A DNA stretch of 64,000 nucleotides, taken from sequence record PP445229.1; one strand, written 5' to 3'. Shown here in pieces: positions 25,043-36,116 of this stretch. The notes under the pieces are model-generated. The model saw only the letters and a program-made list of their open reading frames with translations, was not told the DNA's origin and made no database searches. The stretch's first letter is position 1. Every line of letters begins with the position of its first letter. The position numbers were made by a program, and so were the translations under genes. The DNA is from Escherichia phage EC.W2-6.

Positions 25043-28000
25043 TCACTCCTTAGGTCGAACTCTTACACGGAGTCTCGATTGACGCTTACTGCGTTCAAGC
25101 TTCTCTGACAATGAGCCACGTTTAATCTTAGGCTTCCCTTCGTCATTAAACTTCTCCAAGAACTGCAAGTACTCAGTACGATTTGTTGTCTTGTAAGAAG
25201 GAATCTTGATATCAGGGTTCTCTTCAATCACACGTCTCATCTTCGCTACATCATCCCTACCAAGCAACTTACTCTTAGCCTGTTCAGCTGTAGAACCAAA
25301 GATCTTCTCCAGTGCTCTGGATTTGTTACCACCTGCGGAAGAAGCACCAAGTTTAGCAATGGCAGAGTAATCATCAGCACTAAACCAAGCTACTGGATTA
25401 TCACCATACTTCTTCTTGTTTTCAGCAGCAGTCTGCAATGCACGTACAAAGCGACGGTTGTTACCAGCCTTATCTGCACCATGAACCCTGTCTAAAACTT
25501 CAGCCACACTAGCTAATTCATCCAAGCTCTTCCCGCTTAAGAAAGCTTTCTCTACTTTATCAGCAAAGACCTCTTCCTGTTGTTTAATGCTTTCCAAGAT
25601 ATCAGAATTTGCTTGAGATTTTTCATCATCAGGTAGAGCAGAACGAATCTTCTCCATCTCCAATTCTTCCTCTTGCAGTTTCTTAATATCAGAGTCAACC
25701 TTCTGAGCCTCCTCAATAGCCTTCCTAGTATCCGCATCCAAGTTATCAAGCTTACCTTCAGTATCTCCAGTAACCTTAACAATCTCTTTCTCGATAGGAG
25801 TCATTGATTCGTACTTCTTAGCAAACTTCTCAACATCAGCTTCGATACGAGAACGAGCATTCTGATGTTCAGTAGGAGTCATAGGTTTCTCAAGAAGTGC
25901 ATAACGGTTGTCCATATAGGAACCAGCAAACGCTTCAGCATCCTCTCTAGATATGCCCTTATCTTCCATAGTACGCATCAGGCGGCGATGAATGTCATCA
26001 CGTTGACGTTGTACTGCCATAAGATCATTCTCACGCTCTTGGGCCGCTTTAAGCTCTTCACTGCGCTTAACTCTCTTGTCCACATCAAACTTACGGTTCA
26101 TCTCTTCCGCTTGCTCGTACATCTTGTTCCACTTGGCCTGACGAGCATCTTCCTCTGCATCAGTTAAACGACGCTGACGATCAAGGTAATCTGACTCGGC
26201 GTTGTGGATACGTTCAATGTAACTACGGAACTTCTCTGGAGGAACTGGAGAGTTCTTGTCATGGTGAGCAGCCAACTGTTTCAATGTACGAGATTCCTGA
26301 GCCTCACGAACAGGTTTAGGTAAACCTTCCATCATCTTCTCAATCTCACTCTTCTGAGCTGCAATAGCCTCTAAAGTTTTACGTTCATTCTCAACAGCAG
26401 CCTTAGCATCTGAACGAGCCTGAGCCTTTTTCCTGAGGGTAGCAAGACGTTCTTCACGAGCCTGTAAGTGCTTAGCAGCAGCTTCGTACTGAGAGTTCTT
26501 GTTAGCTTTGTTGAAGGCATTCACTTCTCTGTTGTAGGTGTTAATAAACCCATCCCAAATATCCTTCATCTGACCAACTTCCAAAGCCTCTTCCCTACCA
26601 GCCTTCTCTGAAGATTTAAACTTCCCATCTACAAAGTCATTCATCAGCTTACGCATAGCATCTTTCTGAGCAGGACGTAAAGGTTCTGAATCAATCAAAG
26701 CATCAATCTCAGACTGAAGCTCTTTCTTCTGATCAACCAGTTTAGGAGCATCTTTCTTATCGAAAGCTTTGTTCTCTTCTAGAGCTTGTTGGTACAGTCT
26801 ATCAAACTCATCCTCACGCTGCTTCTGATACAACCTTTCAGCACGACGTTTCAGACTATCCAAGTTAGTTACGTTCCCACCTAAACCTTTCTCTTCAGCA
26901 CGTAATGCCTTAGTAGCAATGTCTTCTGGCAGACCACGTTCTTTAACCCATTCAGCAAAATTAGTTCGTACAGTGTTGTTCTTAGCAGTAGCAATACCTT
27001 GCTGAGAGGCCAGCTGGTTACGAGCCATTTCTTCATGACGTTCAGTGTTGATAGCATTATCTTCCTGACGAATACGACGCATCAGTTCCTTAGGATCGCC
27101 TTTATAAGCCAAGAAGTTTTCAGCAGTAGCTTTAGCTTTAGCAGCCTTAGAGTACAGAGAACGAGCAAAGCGTTCTGCACGATCTTTAGTAGCCTGACGA
27201 GCAGCACTAGACATAGCAGCTAAACGTTCTACACCACTTGCCGGTTTAACGTCCTGTACAGCTTCCTTAGGAGCTTTAGGAGCACGAGCAGGTAACGGCT
27301 CAGCTTTGACTGTTGGTTCCTCTACGGTTGGTTCTGGAGCCTGTGCGGCCTCTTCTTGAGCACGTTGCTGTTCCATTGCACGACGCTCCTCTAGAGGGTT
27401 ACGAGCAGGGAGAGGTTCAGCCTGTGGAGCTTGTTCGACCGGAGCTTCTTGAGCTGCTGCTGCCTCTTCTTCAGCTCGACGCTGTTCAGCCTGACGGATA
27501 GCGCGTCTTTGCGCAACTAAATCACGAGCTGTGAGAGGGGTTTCTTGAGGAGTAGAAGAAGGAAGATTTTCTTCCGTCACAGTACTAGAAGAAGGCTCCC
27601 GAACCGGTTCGGTTTCCACGTCATTTTGCGTCTTAAATTTAATGTCATCAACAACTGGTTCTTCTTCCATCTTAGCACGAGCTTCATCAGCAGTAGATTT
27701 AGCACGAGCAACTTCCAAATCACCACGAGCCAGAGAGCGGATAGCTTCACTATTAGACTCTTGTTGCTTAACACGTTGAGAACGGGCACGCTGAGAAGAG
27801 AAGCGATTCAGAGCATATTTAGCAGCACCGAGAGTGTTCATCACCAGACTAGGAGAAGAAGCCTCACGGAATCCATCATCAGTCAAGGAAGTCCAACCAC
27901 GATCTTGGTTGCTCATGAATTTAGCTGTATTGTTCAGAGTATAAGCATCTTGAATAGGATTAAAACCTTCAGGCATACCTTTCAGTTTCTTCAACCCACC

Positions 28001-29464
28001 AATAGCTTTCTTCATCTCTGGAGAAACATTATCAGCCATCTTCTGTAGTTCAGCAGCTTTCTCTACAAAGTTATTAAAGTCTTCGCCATCACGAGCTTTG
28101 AATCGATTTGCTTCATTGTAGAAAGTCTTGTAAGCATCAATGAAATCACGGTCGGCTTGTGTACGGTTCTTAATATCAATCGGACTACCAGTAAAATCAC
28201 CAGAAGCTCGGAGAGAGGTTAATTCACGATCTAGATTATCTAGAACATCTGTAAGAGCTTTCGTGTTGTCTTTGGTGTAGTCAGCCATTGCATCCTTCAT
28301 AGCAACAGCCTGCTTCTGGTTGTGCTCGTTATCAGCGAATGCTTTACCACGAGTCTTAGCAGGAGAAGCTAAAGGGTTGAGGCCCGGAATGTTGGAATGT
28401 TCTTTCTGAATGGAAGCAGCTTTCTCAGCACGAGCTTGGTCAGTATTAAGAATACGCTGAGCAGCAGGAGAGTCTACAGCAACAGCATCTGTAATACGGA
28501 ATCCATTCTCATCCAGAAGGTTCAGAGCAGAAGCAGCGTTAGCAGTTTCAGCTTTAGAGTAAGCTTCTTTCAGTTCATCAATATTCTTAGCACTACGAAT
28601 TAGTTCATCATCAGCAGCAATATCAGTCTTCGCATACTCTGGAGTGTTCTTGAAGACAGTAGAATCCGGACGGTTAATCAAACCATGAACCCCACCAACT
28701 GCACCACCGAATGCAGCACCCATAGCACCTTCTTCGATAGCACCTTCTAATACATTAGCAAAGGTTGTATCATCTCCATGCTTGTTCTGAGCTTCAGCAG
28801 CACCTACAAGAGCGCCACCTTTAGCACCAGCCACTGCGTTAGTAGCAACGTTCTGACCAATACGTCCAAGTGTGGACTCAGCTGTACCAACAGCGCCCGG
28901 AAGGATTCTCTGAGCCGCATAGTTAGCACCACCAACTAAGGCTGCATCTAGAATAGATTTATCTTCCCCCTCTTCAGGGGTTTGGTCTGCATATGCACGA
29001 CCTGTCTCACGACCTGCGATGATAGCAGCAGCAGCCAATGGGTTAGCAACAGTCATACCAATATCACCAGCAACGCCAGCATACTGACCTACAGTTTTAC
29101 CAATCCCATCCTCAATCTTATCCATACGTTCTTTCAGAAGATTCTGAGAGTTCTCTTGGATACGCTTACCATAACTAGTTTGTGCTCCAGCTAGATTCTC
29201 ACCAATCTCAACTAAACCACCAATACCTTTAGCAGCACTAGCTGCAATATTTGCACCACCAGATTGAAGAGCATTTGACACACCTTGAGCAAACTCACCT
29301 ATAGCACCACGTTCTTCTTGTTGTGGTTGTGCTACTGGCTGTTCCTCAGGAATAGAGCCACCTGCTGCCTTATATTGTTCTCTCATTTGAGCTTGTTGCT
29401 CCGGAGAGGCATTCAGATACGCAGGAGCTTTGGAAGCTTCTTCCCACGGTTTAATGTTAGCCAT
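25043..29464 (-). CDS. large internal virion / ejection protein (1473 aa)
   Basis: Start placed at internal ATG (MANIKPWEE) about 40 nt downstream of a TAATGTATA element; Gly/Ala-rich N-terminal region and long coiled-coil-rich body. Confidence 0.55.
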   Translation of the reverse strand: MANIKPWEEASKAPAYLNASPEQQAQMREQYKAAGGSIPEEQPVAQPQQEERGAIGEFAQGVSNALQSGGANIAASAAKGIGGLVEIGENLAGAQTSYGKRIQENSQNLLKERMDKIEDGIGKTVGQYAGVAGDIGMTVANPLAAAAIIAGRETGRAYADQTPEEGEDKSILDAALVGGANYAAQRILPGAVGTAESTLGRIGQNVATNAVAGAKGGALVGAAEAQNKHGDDTTFANVLEGAIEEGAMGAAFGGAVGGVHGLINRPDSTVFKNTPEYAKTDIAADDELIRSAKNIDELKEAYSKAETANAASALNLLDENGFRITDAVAVDSPAAQRILNTDQARAEKAASIQKEHSNIPGLNPLASPAKTRGKAFADNEHNQKQAVAMKDAMADYTKDNTKALTDVLDNLDRELTSLRASGDFTGSPIDIKNRTQADRDFIDAYKTFYNEANRFKARDGEDFNNFVEKAAELQKMADNVSPEMKKAIGGLKKLKGMPEGFNPIQDAYTLNNTAKFMSNQDRGWTSLTDDGFREASSPSLVMNTLGAAKYALNRFSSQRARSQRVKQQESNSEAIRSLARGDLEVARAKSTADEARAKMEEEPVVDDIKFKTQNDVETEPVREPSSSTVTEENLPSSTPQETPLTARDLVAQRRAIRQAEQRRAEEEAAAAQEAPVEQAPQAEPLPARNPLEERRAMEQQRAQEEAAQAPEPTVEEPTVKAEPLPARAPKAPKEAVQDVKPASGVERLAAMSSAARQATKDRAERFARSLYSKAAKAKATAENFLAYKGDPKELMRRIRQEDNAINTERHEEMARNQLASQQGIATAKNNTVRTNFAEWVKERGLPEDIATKALRAEEKGLGGNVTNLDSLKRRAERLYQKQREDEFDRLYQQALEENKAFDKKDAPKLVDQKKELQSEIDALIDSEPLRPAQKDAMRKLMNDFVDGKFKSSEKAGREEALEVGQMKDIWDGFINTYNREVNAFNKANKNSQYEAAAKHLQAREERLATLRKKAQARSDAKAAVENERKTLEAIAAQKSEIEKMMEGLPKPVREAQESRTLKQLAAHHDKNSPVPPEKFRSYIERIHNAESDYLDRQRRLTDAEEDARQAKWNKMYEQAEEMNRKFDVDKRVKRSEELKAAQERENDLMAVQRQRDDIHRRLMRTMEDKGISREDAEAFAGSYMDNRYALLEKPMTPTEHQNARSRIEADVEKFAKKYESMTPIEKEIVKVTGDTEGKLDNLDADTRKAIEEAQKVDSDIKKLQEEELEMEKIRSALPDDEKSQANSDILESIKQQEEVFADKVEKAFLSGKSLDELASVAEVLDRVHGADKAGNNRRFVRALQTAAENKKKYGDNPVAWFSADDYSAIAKLGASSAGGNKSRALEKIFGSTAEQAKSKLLGRDDVAKMRRVIEENPDIKIPSYKTTNRTEYLQFLEKFNDEGKPKIKRGSLSEKLERSKRQSRLRVRVRPKE

Positions 29465-29502
29465 AACGTCTCCTTTTATAAATAAAAATGTCCTACCCCC
29501 TA

Positions 29503-29511
29503 TATACATTA
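29503..29511 (-). promoter_or_regulatory. TAATGTATA element on minus strand (candidate phage-sigma-dependent late promoter)
   Basis: Exact 9-mer (minus-strand sense) about 40 nt upstream of the large internal protein gene start. Confidence 0.45.
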
Positions 29512-29531
29512 TAGAAGGCAGGACTTAGGTC

Positions 29532-31187
29532 TTATTGAGTAAACCAGCTAGTGTCTTCGACAGCTGATAAAGCACCATTGAGCTTAGGATTGGTTGCTGC
29601 ACCACCAACTGCTTCTTCTGCTTGTTCAGAGAAAACACCTAGAGGGTCATAGAAACCACCAGAAGGGATTGCACGGTTAACCAATGCAGTAGCTCTCTTC
29701 TTATCCATACCAGAACCGATGTAAGCTTCAATCGTAGCTCTCTTAGCATCAGCAACACCTTTCATTGCAGAGGTGTGACCAACGTTAGCTTGCTTACGAG
29801 CATAAGCAAGAGCAGAATCAGTAGGACGCCATCCAGATTTCAGTGCAAACTTGTTGCCAACACGAACGAAGATTGATGGGTCTTCTGCAAAGTGCCCCAA
29901 GTCTTCTTCGGTAAGAGAACGAGTAGCACCGATTTCAGCCCTTGCGGAGTTCATGATAGCCTGCATGTAAGCAGAACGAGCTGTCTGATAGTCTTTATCC
30001 TTAACAGCCTTATCAGCCAAATCCAAGTCTTTGTTAGACTGGTTAAACAGGCCACCTTTCTCTGCCCACTGCTTAGCAACCGTACCTTCAGCTGTATTCT
30101 GAGCAAGACGAACTTCTTTCGGGTTAAAGTTAAAACTCTGAGCAGCTTGTTCAGCACGTTCAGCCTTAACCTTATCACGATAACCAATCAACTCTTTCTG
30201 ACGTTCAAAGTTCATGTTAGCTCTTTCTTCAGCGGCACGACGAGTTTCATCAGCACGCTCACGCATAGTTTGCTCTTGAATCTGTTGACGTCTATCCCAT
30301 TCAGCATTTTGTCGTTCTTCACGAGCAGCATACAACGCTTCTTTCTGAGCAGGGTCTACAGCTCTCATCTTCAGTAGAGATGGGTCTCCGTTAGCAATAG
30401 CAGCTGCAATCGAGTCTTGAGAGAAGCCTTGTTCAATCAGAGCATCACGGTTAGCTTCCAGTTGCTTCTTAGTCTCATCTTGATTAGCCATTCCCTGACC
30501 AATCTGGAAAGCTTCAATAGGAGACTTACCTGACATAATGGAAAGACCTACACCCATCAAACCTGTGTAGAAACTAGAGTTCTGATAGAATGGTTCTTTC
30601 TGTAGCTTGTTCCAAGCTTCCGAAGGGTCTTTAGCTTTCGCAACTTGCAAGATATCATTGTTAACACGTTCCTGATCTTTAGCACGAGTAGCAGCAGCCA
30701 TTCCATCACCAGTATCTTGTCCTTGAGCAAGAGTATTAATCACACCTTGTGCCTGTTCCACCTGAGAAGGAGTAAACTCCATAGGACCAGCTTCTAACGG
30801 TTTAGTAGGAGGTGTTACCGGAAGAGGGTCACTAGGCATAAGCCCAGCATCCTGTAAACCTTGATCAGTGGATAGGTTAGGGTTAGACGCTACAGGGGCC
30901 GGTGCTCCAATATCAATACCTTGAAGACTTGTAGGAGTTCCTTGATTCTGCTGTTCCATAAGACGTTGCTGGAATCCCGGATTAACCATAGCAGTCTGAT
31001 CTTCTTCTGCCTGAGAGACAAGACCCGCAAGAGATGAAGGTACAGCAGGACGTTGATACATAGAAATATCTGCTGTCTGAGTTGGTCTAGCCATATAAGG
31101 AGAGGCCGAAGCCGCTCCCGGATTAACACCATAGAAAGTATTTCTCGGGTCACGACTTCTGACCTGAGCGTAAGTTGTCTGTTGCAT
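29532..31187 (-). CDS. internal virion protein (551 aa)
   Basis: Position in virion gene block; mixed low-complexity N-terminus and helical C-terminus. Confidence 0.45.
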   Translation of the reverse strand: MQQTTYAQVRSRDPRNTFYGVNPGAASASPYMARPTQTADISMYQRPAVPSSLAGLVSQAEEDQTAMVNPGFQQRLMEQQNQGTPTSLQGIDIGAPAPVASNPNLSTDQGLQDAGLMPSDPLPVTPPTKPLEAGPMEFTPSQVEQAQGVINTLAQGQDTGDGMAAATRAKDQERVNNDILQVAKAKDPSEAWNKLQKEPFYQNSSFYTGLMGVGLSIMSGKSPIEAFQIGQGMANQDETKKQLEANRDALIEQGFSQDSIAAAIANGDPSLLKMRAVDPAQKEALYAAREERQNAEWDRRQQIQEQTMRERADETRRAAEERANMNFERQKELIGYRDKVKAERAEQAAQSFNFNPKEVRLAQNTAEGTVAKQWAEKGGLFNQSNKDLDLADKAVKDKDYQTARSAYMQAIMNSARAEIGATRSLTEEDLGHFAEDPSIFVRVGNKFALKSGWRPTDSALAYARKQANVGHTSAMKGVADAKRATIEAYIGSGMDKKRATALVNRAIPSGGFYDPLGVFSEQAEEAVGGAATNPKLNGALSAVEDTSWFTQ

Positions 31188-31200
31188 ATTTATCTCCTAA

Positions 31201-32169
31201 TTAAGTACTAGCCAACCCACCGATTACACCCCCAGCTAATGCACCCCAAGGCCCAAAGGAAGAGCCAGCTGCTGCACCACTCATAGCTCCACCAAGGAAA
31301 CCACCTTTGCCACCAGATGTTTTAGTAGTTGTAGTTTGTCCGAGAGCACCGTTAAGTACACCTGCTGCACCGAGTTGGTTATTGATATCTTGCCATCCCC
31401 AATTAGCTGCGTTCTGAGCATTCTGGTAGGCATTATCATATTCATTCTGTTGTTGCTGTTGTTGCTGCAACCCTGCATTCCATTGATTCATTATTTGCTG
31501 TTGAGACAAATTAGCACCCTGCTGACCTAGGTTAGAAAGGTTAGAACCAATATTAGAAAGACCAGAGAGAGCAGCTGCCTGATTCTGTCTATTACCAGAG
31601 AGGATGCTTTCAGCTTGGCTAATAGCCGAGTTATAGGCACTATTGGTAATATCTGTTGCTTGGCCTTGCATCTGATTCAGAGCATCACCTTGGGCAAAAG
31701 ACTTAGCCATACGAGCACCTGAACCTTGTTGACCAGCAAACTGTTGAGCTAACTGAGGAAGAGCATTACGTGCCAAGTTCTGTTGAACCTGTTCATTATT
31801 AGCTGTAATGGCTGCTTGCACAGCGTCATCATCATACAGTTGACCAGCGAGAGCACCAATCTGCTCTCCAGTAATCCCACCTTGTCCAGAGAGGCTCTGA
31901 TAACCTTTATAGGCATTATCTAGATAACCCAAGCCTTGACCTGCTGCATCCATATACTGCTGTGAGAGAGTACCTAGAGCGCCAGATTGTGCTAGGTTGT
32001 TAAGTGCCTCTGTCTGATTGTTATTAAACCCTACATTGTCACGATAAACATAATCCCCTGAACTAGTATTACCAATCTGTTGGTTAAGCTGGTCAATATA
32101 CTGTTGAATGTATTCAGGGCGAATCATTTGGGAAGTAGTTTTACTACCCCCGCCTCCGAAAAGTCCCAT
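31201..32169 (-). CDS. Gln/Asn/Gly-rich internal virion protein
   Basis: Strongly Q/N/G/A-biased low-complexity composition (QQQQQQQNEY, NLSNLGQQGANLSQQQ). Confidence 0.45.
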   Translation of the reverse strand: MGLFGGGGSKTTSQMIRPEYIQQYIDQLNQQIGNTSSGDYVYRDNVGFNNNQTEALNNLAQSGALGTLSQQYMDAAGQGLGYLDNAYKGYQSLSGQGGITGEQIGALAGQLYDDDAVQAAITANNEQVQQNLARNALPQLAQQFAGQQGSGARMAKSFAQGDALNQMQGQATDITNSAYNSAISQAESILSGNRQNQAAALSGLSNIGSNLSNLGQQGANLSQQQIMNQWNAGLQQQQQQQNEYDNAYQNAQNAANWGWQDINNQLGAAGVLNGALGQTTTTKTSGGKGGFLGGAMSGAAAGSSFGPWGALAGGVIGGLAST

Positions 32170-32181
32170 ATCAAATCTCCT

Positions 32182-33234
32182 TTAGTTTGCTCCAAATGCC
32201 CCTAAGACACCACCTAAGATATTACTACCTGCTGTGGATAACCAGTTAGACTGACCTTTCTGTTGAGAAAGATTAGAACCACCAATCATAGGACCAGCCA
32301 TTCCAGATTGCCCACCTGAGTTGTTATAGGAACTCCAAGCATTCTGAGTCTGTTGATTAGGAGAGAAAGCACCCATACGACCTGCAATACCTAATCCAGT
32401 GATACCAGCACCTAGGAGCTGTTGTCCAGTATTAACCCCCGGAGCAGCATTCTTAATCGTGTACCCAGCCATTGGGCTTACACTATTTAATACATTAAGT
32501 TGGTTGTTAAGCTGATTCCACCTATACTGTTGAGAGCCAATAGCGTTCTGCCAATTAATATCAGCTTGAGCTTGGGCTTGTTGCTGTTGTAGATTACCAG
32601 CCATGAGTTGATTCTGGATAGCTTGTTGAGTTGCCTGAACACCTTGAGCACCAAGATTGAGATTCTGTCCAGCCAATCCTGACTGAGCACCAAGTAAGCC
32701 CCTCTGGAAGTTTTGGTCTTGTTGAAGAGCACTGATTCCCATATTCTTGCCACTGATAGTACGAGCTAAGTTTGTATTAGCACTGTTCAGAGCAGCACCT
32801 TGAGCAGCAGCTCTACGGAGAGAGCCTGAATCAGAACCATTTCCGAGGGATACATTGGAAGCTGCCTTACTAGTCGCTTGAGCAAGAGCTGAGTTATTCA
32901 ATCCTTTACTAAAGTTATTAACACCATCAGCAGTTAGACCACCACCATTGACAATATTCTGATACTGCTGTGCAAGAGAGTTTAATTGGTCCAACCCTTG
33001 CTGTGTACGAGGCGTGTACATATCAGCCAATTGCTTCTGAGTAGTAGAAGCTGCTAAGTTGTTCAGAGCACCCTGTTGGTTGCCATTAAACCCAGCCAGT
33101 TGTTGGGAGATGAATCCCGGATCGTTGTTCTGCATATTCTGAGCATTAGCAACAATCTGCTTCAGCAGGGCATCAACCTGAGAGGAAGGGGCCACTGTGG
33201 TTTTGCTAGAAGCTGATTTTCCAAATAAAGACAT
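32182..33234 (-). CDS. Gln/Asn/Gly-rich internal virion protein
   Basis: Similar composition to the downstream gene; likely paralogous. Confidence 0.45.
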   Translation of the reverse strand: MSLFGKSASSKTTVAPSSQVDALLKQIVANAQNMQNNDPGFISQQLAGFNGNQQGALNNLAASTTQKQLADMYTPRTQQGLDQLNSLAQQYQNIVNGGGLTADGVNNFSKGLNNSALAQATSKAASNVSLGNGSDSGSLRRAAAQGAALNSANTNLARTISGKNMGISALQQDQNFQRGLLGAQSGLAGQNLNLGAQGVQATQQAIQNQLMAGNLQQQQAQAQADINWQNAIGSQQYRWNQLNNQLNVLNSVSPMAGYTIKNAAPGVNTGQQLLGAGITGLGIAGRMGAFSPNQQTQNAWSSYNNSGGQSGMAGPMIGGSNLSQQKGQSNWLSTAGSNILGGVLGAFGAN

Positions 33235-33253: not shown

Positions 33254-34036
33254 TTACTTTACACCAATGCTAGCCAGACGTCTGAGCACTGCTTGTGTTT
33301 GTGGACTGTACTGAGAACCTGCTGCATGTGGTGCACTTGCCCTCTGAACTGTTTGAGAAGTGGGAGGTTTACCAGCAAGCATAGCAGCTACCCCTAATAC
33401 TGCATTACCAAAGTTCTGTTGAGGTTTCTGATTTTCGCCTTCCTGCACTTCATCAGAGTAAAACTCTACTGGATTTCCACCTAAAGCACCTGTCTTAGAA
33501 GCAGCAATCTCTGCCTGAGTTGGAGCTTGTGCGGCCTTCTCTCTATCTAACAAGTCAGGACTAAACTGATTGACTGGTTGAACAGCTTGCAAAGCTCCAA
33601 CAGGGTTAGCAATCTGAGAAGCTGCATCACCATAGAAAGGAAGAAAGTGTTTATTGTTCATGGAGTCAAGAGCTTGTGGAGTAAACCCCTTTTTACCAGC
33701 GAACATTTGCTTAGCTCCACCGATACCTTCTGAATAACCAACCATTGCTTTCTTAACATCACCATTAAAAGCTTTTAAGTTATCTCTTATGTAACGAGCG
33801 CCCATATCAATATTCTTTGCTGGGTCAAGTCTATCTTCTAGTTTGTAACCGTAATCTTTAGCCAACCCTTTACTGATCTGCATTAAACCTACAGGACCAG
33901 TTCCAGAGGCCACTGTAGGACGACCACTGGACTCTCTTTGGATGACAGCATGAATCAAAGCAGCAGGAATCCCATACTTCTTTGAAGCTTGCTGTACCAT
34001 TGGGTCTAGTTCTTCGATACCCATTCTGATTGCCAT
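33254..34036 (-). CDS. virion-associated lytic transglycosylase (SLT domain)
   Basis: IQRESSGRP ... GPVGLMQIS ... AYNGG-like SLT motifs (ES, GLMQ). Confidence 0.7.
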   Translation of the reverse strand: MAIRMGIEELDPMVQQASKKYGIPAALIHAVIQRESSGRPTVASGTGPVGLMQISKGLAKDYGYKLEDRLDPAKNIDMGARYIRDNLKAFNGDVKKAMVGYSEGIGGAKQMFAGKKGFTPQALDSMNNKHFLPFYGDAASQIANPVGALQAVQPVNQFSPDLLDREKAAQAPTQAEIAASKTGALGGNPVEFYSDEVQEGENQKPQQNFGNAVLGVAAMLAGKPPTSQTVQRASAPHAAGSQYSPQTQAVLRRLASIGVK

Positions 34037-34045
34037 AATATCTCC

Positions 34046-35080
34046 TTATTGTATACTCCTGAATATCTTTCTAGCATCTAATATTGGAATACTTAACCCG
34101 AGGGCACCACCCCCTCCTAAATCATATTGACTACTCCAAGAGTAAATCATCCTTCCGAAACCTGTACCGAAAGAAGAGCCATTCATCATGTGAGATCTTG
34201 TGTGTTGAAAATACCAACCACTAGCCTTGCCTCTTATTGCTCCTGCTCCGTAAGATAGTGGTATCATTGGATAGGCCAGAGATGTGTTACCGCCACTCAT
34301 AGGCATAAATCCCTCAACACTAAAAGGGGTTCTATATGTAGAAAATACACACTGAGACCCATTTGGAGAGAAGATATTTAAACCACCATTGTGGGTTGGT
34401 ACTCCAGAACCATCACAGAAGACGGCAATTCTAACACCACCAATGTATCCTGTTTGGTTTGTGTTACCATTATCATGAGACCTGTTCTGGTACACATAAA
34501 CAACCCTATTGGATGGATTGTATAGCAGCCCTGCTCCACCGTTACTCCAATTCGCGTAGACAGTTGCTCGGCTCATATCAAAACCACCAATATCTGGTAT
34601 TTGAAGAGAACCATTTATGTCACCCTCCCAAGCCCAAATACATTGACCAACAACCCCAGAATCGGATATTGAGAAATAGTCAGCAGAGTTGGAGAATGTG
34701 ATTCCATAATTCCTGTTAGCTCTAGGCCATATTTGATACACATTAAAAGCCATATCAAATACCCAACCGTTTACATTATAGTCCATAGTAACTCTGAAGG
34801 TTGAGTTATTAATAACAGATATATCCGTTATCCAATACACATCAGACGTTACGTTAGGAGGTATGTATCTCTCCCAAACAACAGACCCTGTTGGAACTAC
34901 AACTATCTGACCACTACCATCCCAACCACTTATAGGCAAGTCACAGGTATTTCCACTAAAAGAGAAATTCCCACTGACTCTATTTCTGAGTTGAGGGAAT
35001 GTGCTACCACTATCGATGTAAATATCAGCAGGTGCCGCTGGACCCGGACCAACCGGGCGTGTCCATATTCCATATGCCAT
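34046..35080 (-). CDS. tail/baseplate protein (344 aa)
   Basis: Position; beta-rich, Gly/Asn/Ser-rich. Confidence 0.4.
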   Translation of the reverse strand: MAYGIWTRPVGPGPAAPADIYIDSGSTFPQLRNRVSGNFSFSGNTCDLPISGWDGSGQIVVVPTGSVVWERYIPPNVTSDVYWITDISVINNSTFRVTMDYNVNGWVFDMAFNVYQIWPRANRNYGITFSNSADYFSISDSGVVGQCIWAWEGDINGSLQIPDIGGFDMSRATVYANWSNGGAGLLYNPSNRVVYVYQNRSHDNGNTNQTGYIGGVRIAVFCDGSGVPTHNGGLNIFSPNGSQCVFSTYRTPFSVEGFMPMSGGNTSLAYPMIPLSYGAGAIRGKASGWYFQHTRSHMMNGSSFGTGFGRMIYSWSSQYDLGGGGALGLSIPILDARKIFRSIQ

Positions 35081-35081
35081 G

Positions 35082-36116
35082 TTACCAACTCCCTATTCTT
35101 ATGCGAAGAGTTCCACTCCCATCATAAAAATCTATTCTATTACCATTCATCCACAACTGAGAACCACCTGTACCACCCATAACAAAATCACCACCAACAG
35201 TAAGTCTCCAGTTAGAACCCCACATAGAACCAGCAGTGATTTTATCCGCTGATAAGTTCTGAATCTGAGCATTGGAGATAGATACGTTATCAATCTGTGC
35301 CCATTGGATCCTAGCGTTGGCAATCTGAGCAGTTGTGATGTTGACGTTCTTTATGTCAGCGAATTCCATCCTAGCTCGCCCACCCTCAAATACGAAGGGG
35401 GTATTCCCAGAGCTGCCATCACCAACAATAAATTTGTTAGCTGTTACTTGGAATTGACTGTTTGTTCCGTTGTTAGTTAACTTGACCCCAGCATATCTTC
35501 CGTTGACTGTAGAGTTAACACCCCACGTAGCTTCATACTCAGAGAGTTTCATATACTGAGAAAGGCTTCCGTTGATATTTTGCAGTTCTGTCTGAACAAG
35601 AGCAATCTCTTGACCTTGATCGTTAACAATACCTTCTACTGTCTGAATTTTAGTTGTGTTACCTTCGATGCTGGTCTTAAAACCAGATACAGTGCTTTCT
35701 AGCTTCACAGGGGGTTGAACAGAATTATCCCAAATGTCCTCAGTGGACAGGTTCCCCATCTGGGTTTGGATATCTGCAATAGCTGTTTCTATCTCTGTAG
35801 TAATTCTATTCTCAAGCTCATCAAATTGTAGATTCATTGCATTAAGAGCTTTAATACGAACATCAATCTCTTCGTGAATTTCATCTATAGCTTGGAACAT
35901 TTGGTTAGTAGCTGTGCTAACTTTTTGTAATTCATCATACACGGCTACGTTATATGTTTCTGTGTCCTGTACATTATTGAGAAACCCAACGTTGTACGGG
36001 AGTGTGGTGTTGTTGCGACCAGTGTTCTTACGAAAACCACCTGCACCCATAAGTTCCTCCAAAACAATAAAAGGGGCACGAAGCCCCTTGTTGTTATCTC
36101 CGCCCGCCAACAGCAA
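35082..36116 (-). CDS. tail fibre-like protein (344 aa)
   Basis: N-terminal coiled coil then repetitive ANARIQWAQIDNVSISNAQIQNL segment. Confidence 0.4.
   Translation of the reverse strand: MLLAGGDNNKGLRAPFIVLEELMGAGGFRKNTGRNNTTLPYNVGFLNNVQDTETYNVAVYDELQKVSTATNQMFQAIDEIHEEIDVRIKALNAMNLQFDELENRITTEIETAIADIQTQMGNLSTEDIWDNSVQPPVKLESTVSGFKTSIEGNTTKIQTVEGIVNDQGQEIALVQTELQNINGSLSQYMKLSEYEATWGVNSTVNGRYAGVKLTNNGTNSQFQVTANKFIVGDGSSGNTPFVFEGGRARMEFADIKNVNITTAQIANARIQWAQIDNVSISNAQIQNLSADKITAGSMWGSNWRLTVGGDFVMGGTGGSQLWMNGNRIDFYDGSGTLRIRIGSW

Follow-up and report, generated by a model that had tools for sequence, protein, structure and literature searches.

A pair of small Kuravirus ejection proteins: diverged paralogs of a glycine-zipper module and candidates for the membrane-proximal end of the DNA channel

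The ejection cassette and its identity with that of SU10

The DNA analyzed here, a 64,000-nt window of Escherichia phage EC.W2-6 (sequence record PP445229.1), comes from a phiEco32/SU10-like Kuravirus; the whole window matched EC.W8-1 at 100% and phiEco32 at 97.9%. Two adjoining open reading frames (ORFs) lie on its minus strand, exactly where the initial annotation had placed them. ORF B (32182-33234) encodes a protein of 350 aa (35.9 kDa, pI 10.0) that is the ortholog of SU10 gp21 and phiEco32 gp23 and represents a basic, B-type paralog. ORF A (31201-32169) encodes a protein of 322 aa (33.3 kDa, pI 4.3), the acidic, A-type paralog, which is orthologous to SU10 gp22 and to phiEco32 gp24, a protein annotated as “DNA injection/ejection protein.” The cassette runs in the order needle, DUF6453, SLT, gp21, gp22, gp23, and gp24 in SU10 numbering, and the surroundings of the pair were also described correctly at the outset, with a transglycosylase gene on one side and genes for internal proteins on the other.

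The first gene of the ejection cassette (33254-34036, minus strand) encodes an SLT lytic transglycosylase orthologous to SU10 gp20 (Pfam SLT, E = 1.2e-23; phrog_12507). On the other side of the pair, 29532-31187 (minus strand) encodes a 551-aa ejection protein (SU10 gp23 ortholog; phrog_12130), which by its size and position is a candidate periplasmic-tunnel subunit; sequence comparison detected no similarity between it and LUZ24 gp51, T7 gp15, or P22 gp20. Beyond it lies the gene for an ejection protein of about 1,473 aa (25043-29464, minus strand; SU10 gp24 ortholog; phrog_14629), by the same two measures a candidate inner-membrane or cytoplasmic component. The mechanically called ORF runs to 29509 and would encode 1,488 aa, and translation likely begins at the ATG at 29464: positions 1-1473 of the phrog_14629 profile align to residues 16-1488 of the 1,488-aa ORF, and the orthologs in SU10 and phiEco32 are annotated at 1,473 aa. 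A hairpin at 29490-29524 overlaps the 5′ extension of the longer ORF. An Rfam scan of the whole 64-kb window gave zero matches, and a sigma-70 promoter scan found sites to be rarer than in shuffled sequences.

A shares 100% amino acid identity with SU10 gp22, and B shares 97% with SU10 gp21. Gene order and sizes in the region are the same as in SU10, and the predicted masses of A and B (33.27 and 35.94 kDa) fit the SU10 table. Both SU10 proteins have been detected in virions by MS, with 49% and 53% sequence coverage (PMC4281155), and again in Suppl. Table 1 of PMC9509320. By SDS-PAGE, SU10 virions contain gp20-24, and genome-release intermediates formed in vitro lack them (PMC9509320, text and Suppl. 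Fig. 4C); the tail needle departs along with them, and the same work lists gp20 among the ejection proteins, with transglycosylase activity (PMC9509320). In the SU10 reconstructions the ejection proteins lie inside the head without ordered density, and the authors propose that they extend the nozzle to form a trans-periplasmic channel (PMC9509320).

Because their orthologs are present in SU10 virions and absent from the genome-release intermediates, A and B are ejection proteins, packed in the capsid and expelled at infection, as shown experimentally in this sister phage. The initial annotation had called them internal or ejection proteins, which the experiments on the near-identical gp21 and gp22 bear out, and had held that absence from purified virions would speak against it; the SU10 orthologs are there by MS, so the proposal is not refuted. 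This identity was already known from the SU10 literature, and the finding, while real, is largely already explained. Nothing material distinguishes A and B from SU10 gp22 and gp21, the same proteins from a different isolate. The published SU10 work neither mentions the paralogy of gp21 and gp22 nor says where in the channel they would sit.

A conserved module beneath a biased composition

A and B had been described as Gln/Asn/Gly-rich proteins of low complexity with poly-Q runs and NLxNLG repeats. The bias is real: Q, N, G, A, and S together make up 61.8% of A and 62.6% of B, compared with 32-43% in six neighboring virion genes, and K, R, D, and E contribute only 7-9%. Mean Shannon entropy over 30 residues is 3.14 and 3.24 bits, compared with about 3.55 bits in the neighbors. 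A carries a Q7 run at residues 235-241 (31447-31467, minus strand; P = 2e-4 versus shuffles), inside a long predicted helix (residues 218-275), together with a Q3 run; the longest run in B, a Q4, falls short of significance (P = 0.10 versus shuffles), so that the description of poly-Q runs holds for A and not for B. The NLxNLG repeats did not withstand inspection. A has a single copy of the motif (NLSNLG, residue 210) and B a single degenerate one (NLNLG, residue 191), and the best local scores for internal repeats (60 and 58) were not above shuffle controls (means of 56 and 60). On the DNA, TRF found only two tiny 9-nt arrays, one of which, CTGTTGTTG, coincides with the Q7 run of A. Both proteins have the bias toward Q, N, G, and S with few charges that is typical of prion-like or disordered proteins. 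The conserved columns and motifs, the lack of repeats, and the long helices predicted with low confidence do not fit this classification.

In a profile search both proteins matched phrog_4287 (B, E = 5.5e-117; A, E = 3.5e-109). They are 30% identical to each other (E = 9e-12 with compositional adjustment), and they are diverged, ancient paralogs of one module. The module consists of a conserved N terminus of the MGLFGG type, a Q/N-rich helical body of about 250 residues, a T/S/G linker, and an uncharged glycine-zipper tail. Searches among 1.84 billion representatives returned 372 relatives at E ≤ 1e-3, and alignments of 24 and 51 sequences contain invariant and near-invariant positions down to about 25-30% identity. 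The most conserved block of B, where the last long helix ends (residues 227-259, NWQNA..W.QLNN.LNVLNS.SPMAGYT; 32458-32556, minus strand), includes N230, W239, N244, L246, and G257, all invariant in the 24-sequence alignment, plus several near-invariant residues. A search of Pfam with A and B returned no family at E ≤ 0.1, and when the PDB was searched by sequence with A, with B, and with the family profile, the matches did not rise above chance. With tblastn, B matched E. coli and Shigella phages of the Kuravirus type only among phage genomes, a search that missed even the paralog A because of composition filtering.

The pair itself is widely maintained. The order SLT, B-type, A-type, a protein of about 570 aa, and one of about 1,300-1,600 aa is kept in contigs whose B is only 43-62% identical and in an E. 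coli chromosomal element, and an SLT gene adjoins the pair in every Kuravirus-like locus examined. A-type orthologs from different phages are 51% identical, compared with 33% for A and B inside one phage. All 47 A-type orthologs are acidic (pI 4.05-5.24), and 94% of the 52 B-type orthologs are basic (median pI 9.78). By these comparisons the tandem pair is old and non-redundant, with complementary charges on its acidic and basic members; its age and its charge pattern are new here.

AlphaFold2 (AF2) monomer models were built for B from the 24-sequence alignment and for A from the 51-sequence alignment. Their pLDDT was low throughout (43 for B and 50 for A), so the fold is not established. With that low confidence, the models place long alpha-helices, including some of 50-58 residues, over about 75% of A and B and leave the last 50-100 residues or so as predicted coil. 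Foldseek comparison of the A model with the PDB found generic helical hairpins only (best E = 0.35, TM about 0.15).

The tail of A comprises residues 283-322, KTSGGKGGFLGGAMSGAAAGSSFGPWGALAGGVIGGLAST (31204-31323, minus strand), and is a candidate membrane-inserting or oligomerizing segment; the highest Kyte-Doolittle window in A is 0.94, at residue 299. B has two such segments. The first (residues 272-291, QLLGAGITGLGIAGRMGAFS; 32362-32421, minus strand) is conserved across the family as GAG-TGLGI-G-LG-F, with G275, G277, L281, G282, G285, G288, and F290 near-invariant in the 24-sequence alignment; the highest Kyte-Doolittle window in B is 1.16, at residue 273. The second, C-terminal segment (residues 331-350, WLSTAGSNILGGVLGAFGAN; 32185-32244, minus strand) has a 19-residue value of 1.03 at residue 331, with SNILGGVLGAFGA conserved in B-type orthologs. 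Across 169 members the tails are 27% Gly, and their charged fraction is 0.024 compared with 0.118 in the body, about fivefold fewer. The hydropathy of the A and B tails (0.9-1.2 over 19 residues) is moderate and below that of a classical transmembrane helix.

Relatives in other phages and the Peptidase_S74 site

In 25 of 197 relatives, by motif count, the SDxxxK motif that carries the Ser/Lys dyad of Peptidase_S74 follows directly after the equivalent of this tail. The domain itself scored at or above the Pfam gathering score in P0089, P0098, GAP52_022, P0077, and P0084 (in GAP52_022, residues 328-382, 22.1 bits against a cutoff of 22) and below it in BUCT695 gp111 (16.9 bits), P0075, P0078, and P0087. 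A and B have no Peptidase_S74 domain (Pfam, E ≤ 0.1); they stop exactly where their relatives begin SDxxxK, the tail of A ending at the position that corresponds to the cleavage site. The S74 domains of endosialidases and tail fibers act on trimers.

Longer relatives place the module N-terminal to Hydrolase_2, Phage_lysozyme2, or SLT domains. In fusions resembling “internal virion protein D” (such as MW202675 UOF80297, P0089, and P0188), the first 300 residues or so are the same module, aligned from about residue 5, followed by Peptidase_S74 and then by 500-1,700 more residues with Hydrolase_2, Phage_lysozyme2, or SLT domains; these further residues form a separate family. A phmmer comparison of the large ejection proteins of T7, P22, LUZ24, GAP52, and Kuravirus with the C-terminal parts of the long fusions found no match except that of the SLT protein of the window with P0136. 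The functions joined in the long fusions sit on separate polypeptides in Kuravirus.

A counterpart outside the Kuraviruses is the “DNA injection protein” of Grimontviridae (GAP52_022, the 7-11 and SE131 types, and BUCT695 gp111), which has the same module (phrog_4287, E = 2.7e-130), is 28% identical to A, and occupies the same place in the late operon, before proteins of about 550 aa and 1,300-1,400 aa. It differs from A and B in being present in one copy, in carrying a C-terminal Peptidase_S74 after the tail, and in lacking an SLT gene directly upstream.

A remote homolog is LUZ24 gp53 (313 aa), which hit phrog_4287 with E = 2e-10 and scored 41.3 bits against a hidden Markov model (HMM) of the module built from 187 sequences; HMM positions 3-333 aligned to residues 3-308, and 300 shuffles scored -3.5 bits or less. 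An hhalign comparison of the 24-sequence profile with LUZ24 gp53 as a single sequence fell short of significance. This homology was seen only with the PHROG profile and with the 187-sequence HMM and its shuffle controls. Like A and B, LUZ24 gp53 is of similar size, has a Q/N-rich helical body and a glycine-zipper tail, and is encoded upstream of virion proteins of about 500 aa and more than 1,000 aa, a gp14-like position. From size, synteny, and genus-level conservation, we take it to correspond to Pa223 gp56, a 313-aa protein proposed as an outer-membrane channel on the basis of predicted membrane helices at residues 278-291 and 296-311 and an AF3 nonamer (Pa223 preprint). These two helices are the glycine-zipper tail. 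Unlike A and B, Bruynoghevirus gp53/gp56 is present in a single copy without an adjoining SLT gene, and BLASTP found no similarity of the 551-aa and 1,488-aa neighbors to LUZ24 gp51 and gp50. The outer-membrane role in Bruynoghevirus is itself a prediction (Pa223 preprint).

To match ejection proteins between groups of phages, size and synteny are usually all that is used (PMC8954989). In operon position A and B fit T7 gp14, P22 gp7, and DEV gp73, the first and smallest members of an ejection operon, ahead of a midsized and a very large protein; in size they do not, since those proteins have 151-229 aa, about half the size of A and B (322-350 aa), and those proteins are single copy. The most hydrophobic segments of P22 gp7 (AIGGGASGAIAGAGLAKLI) and T7 gp14 are small-xxx-small stretches of Gly and Ala with a hydropathy similar to that of the A and B tails. 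Membership of A and B in the T7 gp14 or P22 gp7 family was rejected: the module HMM scored T7 gp14 at -11.7 bits and P22 gp7 at -14.1 bits, within the shuffle distributions. It gave no signal above shuffles for P22 gp7, gp14, gp16, gp20, and gp26 or for T7 gp13-16. For these characterized pore formers, DEV gp73 among them, pore activity has been demonstrated; for A and B such activity is putative.

Possible roles in the DNA channel

Our preferred reading, which we hold at about even confidence, is that A and B, as the small ejection proteins of a Kuravirus, form the part of the DNA channel next to the membrane, most likely the outer membrane, and probably do so as a hetero-oligomer. As experiments on SU10 show, these proteins travel inside the capsid alongside the DNA and leave through the tail with the SLT, 551-aa, and approximately 1,473-aa proteins. 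After ejection, acidic A and basic B would probably assemble with each other, the grounds for a heteromer being the conserved charge complementarity and the co-retention of both copies. This assembly would extend a nozzle of the SU10 type, its helical bodies lining or buttressing the conduit and its glycine-zipper tails inserting into or sealing against the membrane. The SLT protein would clear peptidoglycan, and the two larger proteins would complete the periplasmic and inner-membrane parts. A and B would in this way play the role of T7 gp14, P22 gp7, or DEV gp73 without being their detectable homologs, and they are homologs of LUZ24 gp53, the Bruynoghevirus candidate for the outer-membrane channel.

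Alternatively, A and B might form or lengthen a periplasmic tube that continues the SU10 nozzle, with another protein, such as the 551-aa or 1,473-aa one, touching the membrane. The nozzle extension across the periplasm proposed for SU10 (PMC9509320) agrees with such a tube, as do the predicted helices of 50-58 residues, which suit a helical tube, and the modest hydropathy of the tails. The “extensible conduit” of the initial annotation is close in spirit to that proposal; the contribution of A and B themselves to it is putative. However, the tunnel protein in the T7, DEV, and Pa223 schemes is the product of the middle-sized gene of about 500-750 aa, here the 551-aa protein, and the homologous LUZ24 gp53/Pa223 gp56 is in a gp14-like position. 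A conserved, uncharged glycine-zipper tail would also have no obvious use in a soluble tube. We consider a purely periplasmic role unlikely, if still deserving of some weight.

The Peptidase_S74 chaperone found right after the tail in relatives, and the termination of A and B exactly at the equivalent of its cleavage site, point toward another device, a helical rod of three strands, its tips Gly-rich and membrane-active, that pierces the membrane in the manner of a trimeric fusion protein rather than as a pore of 6-12 subunits. It could act with or after the trimeric tail needle, and the SU10 needle is lost together with gp20-24 (PMC9509320). Against this, A and B have no S74 domain, so that a trimer would follow by analogy, and AF3 gave a Pa223 gp56 channel only as a nonamer, though nine is a multiple of three. 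Such a device seems to us quite improbable.

The initial annotation had suggested flexible, possibly gel-like proteins, and A and B might accordingly be a disordered filler that occupies the capsid or tail channel as a matrix, either flexible or phase-separated. The strong compositional bias, the lowered entropy, and the significant Q7 run of A fit a filler, as do the low AF2 confidence, the coil predicted for the last 50-100 residues or so, and the SU10 maps without ordered ejection-protein density (PMC9509320). Yet columns are invariant across proteins only 25-45% identical, position-specific conservation extends down to about 25-30% identity, and the alignment is collinear from end to end even with LUZ24 gp53. 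Repeats are absent, about 75% of residues fall in long predicted helices, and each paralog conserves its own charge. Low monomer pLDDT is also expected of proteins that fold only as oligomers, as reported for other ejection proteins (PMC8954989; Pa223 preprint). This pattern does not support the gel-like description, and we regard a filler as very unlikely. Least credible is a role confined to the capsid, in which A and B serve to organize or buffer the DNA of the prolate head, or to plug the portal, and then exit passively with no part in the channel: the SU10 proteins do lie inside the head without resolved density (PMC9509320) and the strongly basic B (pI 10) could bind DNA, but A is acidic in all orthologs, the glycine-zipper tail is conserved, and the family-wide fusion or adjacency to peptidoglycan hydrolases points to the cell envelope.

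To our knowledge, only in T7-, P22-, and N4-like phages is there a structural understanding of how a short-tailed phage builds its DNA channel through the Gram-negative envelope. As first stated, the finding at this locus adds nothing to the SU10 literature on small Kuravirus ejection proteins. What is new is a sequence-level link among the small ejection proteins of Kuravirus, Grimontviridae, and Bruynoghevirus, accompanied by the conserved glycine-zipper tail, the S74 self-cleavage site that recurs where this tail ends, and the conserved acidic/basic paralog pair. Together these features lead to specific predictions for bilayer, cryo-EM, and genetic work in tractable E. coli phages. Kuraviruses are used in E. 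coli phage therapy work.

We tentatively extend the preferred channel-end reading to a broader proposal, which is possible but doubtful: phrog_4287, Bruynoghevirus gp53/gp56, and the N termini of many internal virion proteins of 800-2,000 aa may be one widespread, undescribed ejection-protein module, represented by A and B. Autoproteolysis by an ancestral Peptidase_S74 would imply a trimer-based helical assembly whose membrane-active, glycine-zipper C terminus was exposed at cleavage. Kuraviruses would then have lost the chaperone, duplicated the module, and come to use an acidic/basic heteromer at the outer-membrane end of the DNA channel. If this is true, the device with which a large fraction of short-tailed phages get through the outer membrane would have no sequence relationship to T7 gp14 or P22 gp7.

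Genomic context and virion identity of ORFs A and B

ORF calling placed two adjacent genes on the minus strand of the window, ORF A (31201-32169, 322 aa) and, 12 nt from it, ORF B (32182-33234, 350 aa). The biased composition described in the initial annotation was confirmed: Q, N, G, A, and S together account for 61.8% of A and 62.6% of B, versus 32 to 43% in six adjoining virion genes, and only 7 to 9% of the residues are charged. Mean entropy over 30-residue windows is 3.14 bits for A and 3.24 bits for B, compared with ~3.55 bits for the neighbors. The setting between a transglycosylase and internal protein genes also held, with an SLT gene (33254-34036, minus strand; Pfam SLT, E = 1.2e-23) upstream of B and genes encoding proteins of 551 aa (29532-31187) and then ~1473 aa (25043-29464) downstream. 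The reported NLxNLG "repeats" reduced to one conserved motif in each protein (NLSNLG at A210 and NLNLG at B191), and no internal repeats in either protein exceeded shuffled controls. Poly-Q runs were borne out for A, whose Q7 run at residues 235 to 241 is unusual relative to shuffles (P = 2e-4), and not for B, whose Q4 run is not unusual (P = 0.10).

The 2-kb region containing A and B is 100% identical, at equal coordinates, to that of Escherichia phage EC.W8-1 and 97.9% identical to that of phiEco32 by megablast, and all 75 megablast matches are E. coli or Shigella phages. A corresponds to phiEco32 gp24 and B to gp23, both now labeled "DNA ejection protein" in RefSeq; SU10 gp22 is 100% identical to A, and SU10 gp21 is 97% identical to B. 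The computed masses of A (33.27 kDa) and B (35.94 kDa) agree with the 33.3 and 35.9 kDa in the SU10 proteomics table (PMC4281155). LC-MS/MS of SU10 identified gp20, gp21, gp22, gp23, and gp24, with coverage of 49% for gp22 and 53% for gp21 (Mirzaei et al. 2014, PMC4281155). SDS-PAGE bands of SU10 were likewise identified by MS (Supplementary Fig. 4C), and gp21 and gp22 are listed at 350 and 322 aa (Supplementary Table 1); gp20 to gp24 occur in virions and are missing from genome-release intermediates produced in vitro (Siborova et al., PMC9509320). These orthologs, 97 to 100% identical to A and B, are packaged in the head and leave with the tail needle and DNA. The SU10 ejection proteins are without resolved density and were proposed to lengthen the nozzle into a trans-periplasm channel, with gp20 degrading peptidoglycan (Siborova et al., PMC9509320); the ejection-protein assignment is repeated in a Kuravirus genomics paper (PMC9965538). 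The virion proteomics that the initial annotation named as a check had therefore already been performed and published on essentially the same proteins, supporting its reading of A and B as internal or ejection proteins. A and B are almost certainly ejection proteins; that inference was correct, but it is already established for the Kuravirus genus. A literature search found no later work giving gp21 or gp22 a specific role.

A and B are co-oriented without interruption with the SLT and 551-aa genes; there were no Rfam matches and no excess of promoter-like sites. The 551-aa and ~1473-aa genes are separated by a strong terminator-like hairpin (29490-29524, minus strand; 15 pairs, T-rich tail), which could act as an attenuator for the latter, giant-protein gene. 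The ATG at 29464 is indicated as the true start by the overlap of this hairpin with a 15-codon 5' extension of the mechanically called 1488-aa ORF, by a PHROG alignment starting at residue 16, and by annotations of 1473 aa. Between a 1005-aa Ig-like gene and the tail-needle gene is a GC-rich hairpin (36071-36089), scored as a terminator on each strand. The needle ORF (Phage_Tail_Tip; 35082-36116, minus strand) was called with a TTG start at 36116, probably an artifact of mechanical ORF calling; its PHROG alignment starts at residue 23, giving a 322-aa protein as annotated in SU10 and phiEco32. Between the needle and SLT genes, a position kept in distant relatives, a DUF6453 gene (34046-35080, minus strand) encodes a 344-aa protein with 11 Trp and 4 Cys and the PHROG label "membrane protein." It is absent from the SU10 virion proteins in the portion of the list available to us (PMC4281155) and may act in assembly or be an additional ejection or tail protein.

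Conservation of the module and divergence of the pair

A and B are paralogs (30% identity across ~310 residues; E = 9e-12 with composition-adjusted statistics), and both match phrog_4287 (E ~1e-110), the family unit that we call the module. Conservation was read from alignments of 24 and 51 family members. The module opens with MG/S-L-F-G-G, in which M1 is invariant and L3 is at least 90% conserved, followed by an S/T-rich (S/T/K-rich) stretch, and invariant or near-invariant residues occur throughout its Q/N-rich body. A strongly conserved block, NWQNA..W.QLNN.LNVLNS.SPMAGYT in B, is followed by a T/S/G linker and then a glycine-zipper segment, GAG-TGLGI-G-LG-F in B and FLGGAMSGAAAGSSFGPWGALAGGVIGGL in A. 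Confidence in the AF2 monomer models was low, with a mean pLDDT of 43 (B) and 50 (A); the two models agreed in predicting long helices (residues ~18 to 252 of B and ~19 to 275 of A) and in leaving the glycine-rich C-terminal part unstructured. Foldseek with the A model, the better of the two, returned only insignificant generic helical hairpins and was thus uninformative, and we draw no conclusion about the fold. The family is probably helical and conserved despite its biased composition. A featureless low-complexity tract was rejected, as the family is conserved position by position.

The N termini of A and B (32131-32169 and 33196-33234, minus strand) are among the best-conserved parts of the family, and the long fusions described below have similar G/S/T-rich N termini. 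This region might signal packaging or incorporation, or be a site of processing; in P22 gp7, the host protease OpdA removes the N-terminal 20 residues (P22 sequence record).

Long metagenomic contigs encoding proteins 43 to 62% identical to B retain the order Tail_Tip, DUF6453, SLT, B-type, A-type, ~563-583 aa, and ~1318-1613 aa. The second module gene of a distant contig is a clear ortholog of A (51% identity), and the A-type and B-type proteins of that phage share 33% identity. Every one of the 47 retrieved A-type proteins has an acidic pI (4.05 to 5.24), and 94% of the 52 B-type proteins are basic (median pI, 9.78). Judged from these sequences, the pair is old and subfunctionalized. That both copies persist, with net charges that are opposite and conserved, speaks against redundancy, and the simplest explanation is a heteromer or separate binding partners for the two; a heteromer of A and B is possible, though we would not yet favor it.

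Fusions and Peptidase_S74 in the wider family

Searching 1.84 billion representative proteins with a profile yielded 372 relatives (E ≤ 1e-3). Stand-alone module proteins are 290 to 430 aa long; among the matches listed, 67 of 197 exceed 800 aa (800 to 2000 aa) and carry the module at the extreme N terminus (~300 residues), as confirmed by PHROG scans. Long fusions include P0089, P0098, P0188, and P0136. The "internal virion protein D" of the environmental podovirus MW202675 (L006:8986-12543), adjoining a P22 gp10-like gene, is also a module fusion. Among the 74 relatives that exceed 600 aa, the C-terminal regions of 73 group into a single family, without similarity to T7 gp15/16, P22 gp16/20, or Kuravirus gp23/24.

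In several long relatives, Pfam places Peptidase_S74, a self-cleaving intramolecular chaperone of endosialidases and tail fibers, directly after the module, and in several, Hydrolase_2 or Phage_lysozyme2 lies beyond it; one contains an SLT domain like that of the window's SLT neighbor. In 25 of 197 relatives, a strict motif search found SDxxxK, the S74 start with its Ser/Lys dyad, right behind the glycine-zipper tail. The C termini of A and B fall exactly at the equivalent of this start, so A and B correspond to the predicted mature, postcleavage product of these relatives. A literature search found no description of a module-S74 link, which to our knowledge has not been described before.

Grimontviridae (GAP52, the 7-11 group, and Aeromonas BUCT695) have a single module copy in the same late-operon place as in Kuravirus. 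This protein is 28% identical to A and, unlike A and B, has its own C-terminal S74 domain; GAP52_022 just reaches the Pfam S74 cutoff, and BUCT695 gp111 is below it. Between it and the ~550-aa protein come two small, unrelated proteins rather than a second module or SLT (L004:10240-11626, GAP52_023 and GAP52_024; L005:10220-11440; 280/225 aa and 177 aa; phrog_27929 and phrog_25101). Both GAP52 proteins scored ≤0 against the module HMM.

An SU10-type structural block lies at ~204-225 kb within the 389,554-bp E. coli chromosomal contig DAHCAP010000002.1 (L013, GCA_023211535.1). It encodes SU10_MCP, terminase, and SU10_portal and then SLT and proteins of 334, 322, 498, and 1113 aa, of which the 322-aa protein is A-type (44% identity to A). 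The SU10-type group is regarded as strictly virulent; this block looks like a candidate integrated or prophage-like relative. P0238 is a comparable case, on an Enterobacter cloacae contig of 317,682 bp.

Possible place of A and B in the ejection channel

The structural modules of Kuravirus and Bruynoghevirus are related. The ejection proteins of Pa223 are gp56 (313 aa), gp54 (505 aa), and gp53 (~1000 aa), and gp56 was proposed to be an outer-membrane channel based on predicted membrane helices (residues 278-291 and 296-311) and an AF3 nonamer (10.1101/2025.06.11.659172). LUZ24 gp53, the 313-aa protein at the position of Pa223 gp56, is at least 94% conserved among P. aeruginosa Bruynogheviruses. 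It matches phrog_4287 (E = 2e-10) and aligns end to end with a 187-sequence module HMM (HMM 3-333, residues 3-308) at 41.3 bits, versus a maximum of -3.5 bits for 300 shuffles of its own sequence. These matches identify A and B as remote homologs of the Bruynoghevirus outer-membrane-channel candidate. The module HMM found nothing above shuffles in P22 gp7, gp14, gp16, gp20, and gp26 or T7 gp13-16, and no PDB chain matched A or B in sequence.

The characterized pore formers P22 gp7 and T7 gp14 resemble A, B, and LUZ24 gp53 (glycine-zipper tail, residues 276-311) in that their most hydrophobic segment is of a Gly/Ala small-xxx-small type. In P22 gp7 this segment is AIGGGASGAIAGAGLAKLI (KD19, 1.31; likewise 1.31 in T7 gp14), and the tails score 0.94 in A, 1.16 in B, and 1.29 in LUZ24 gp53. 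In 169 family members, Gly makes up 27% of the tail, whose charged fraction is 0.024 versus 0.118 in the body.

We propose that, once ejected, A and B would assemble together at the membrane-proximal end of a channel continuing the SU10 nozzle, most likely at the outer membrane, and that their glycine-zipper tails would insert into the membrane or pack helices tightly. Going solely by protein size and gene order, the tunnel through the periplasm would fall to the 551-aa protein, and the part at the inner membrane or in the cytoplasm to the ~1473-aa protein. We hold the outer-membrane-proximal role of A and B tentatively, as plausible but just short of probable. A and B might instead form a periplasmic tube or, as the S74 association of their relatives suggests, a trimer-based, fusion-like piercing device; a purely capsid-internal role is a further alternative. 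The gel-like matrix of the initial annotation is the reading least compatible with the conservation pattern. The relationships of A and B to LUZ24 gp53 and to the S74-tailed and hydrolase-fused relatives are leads drawn from sequence, together with another group's prediction, and as such they are modestly interesting for studies of podovirus genome delivery.
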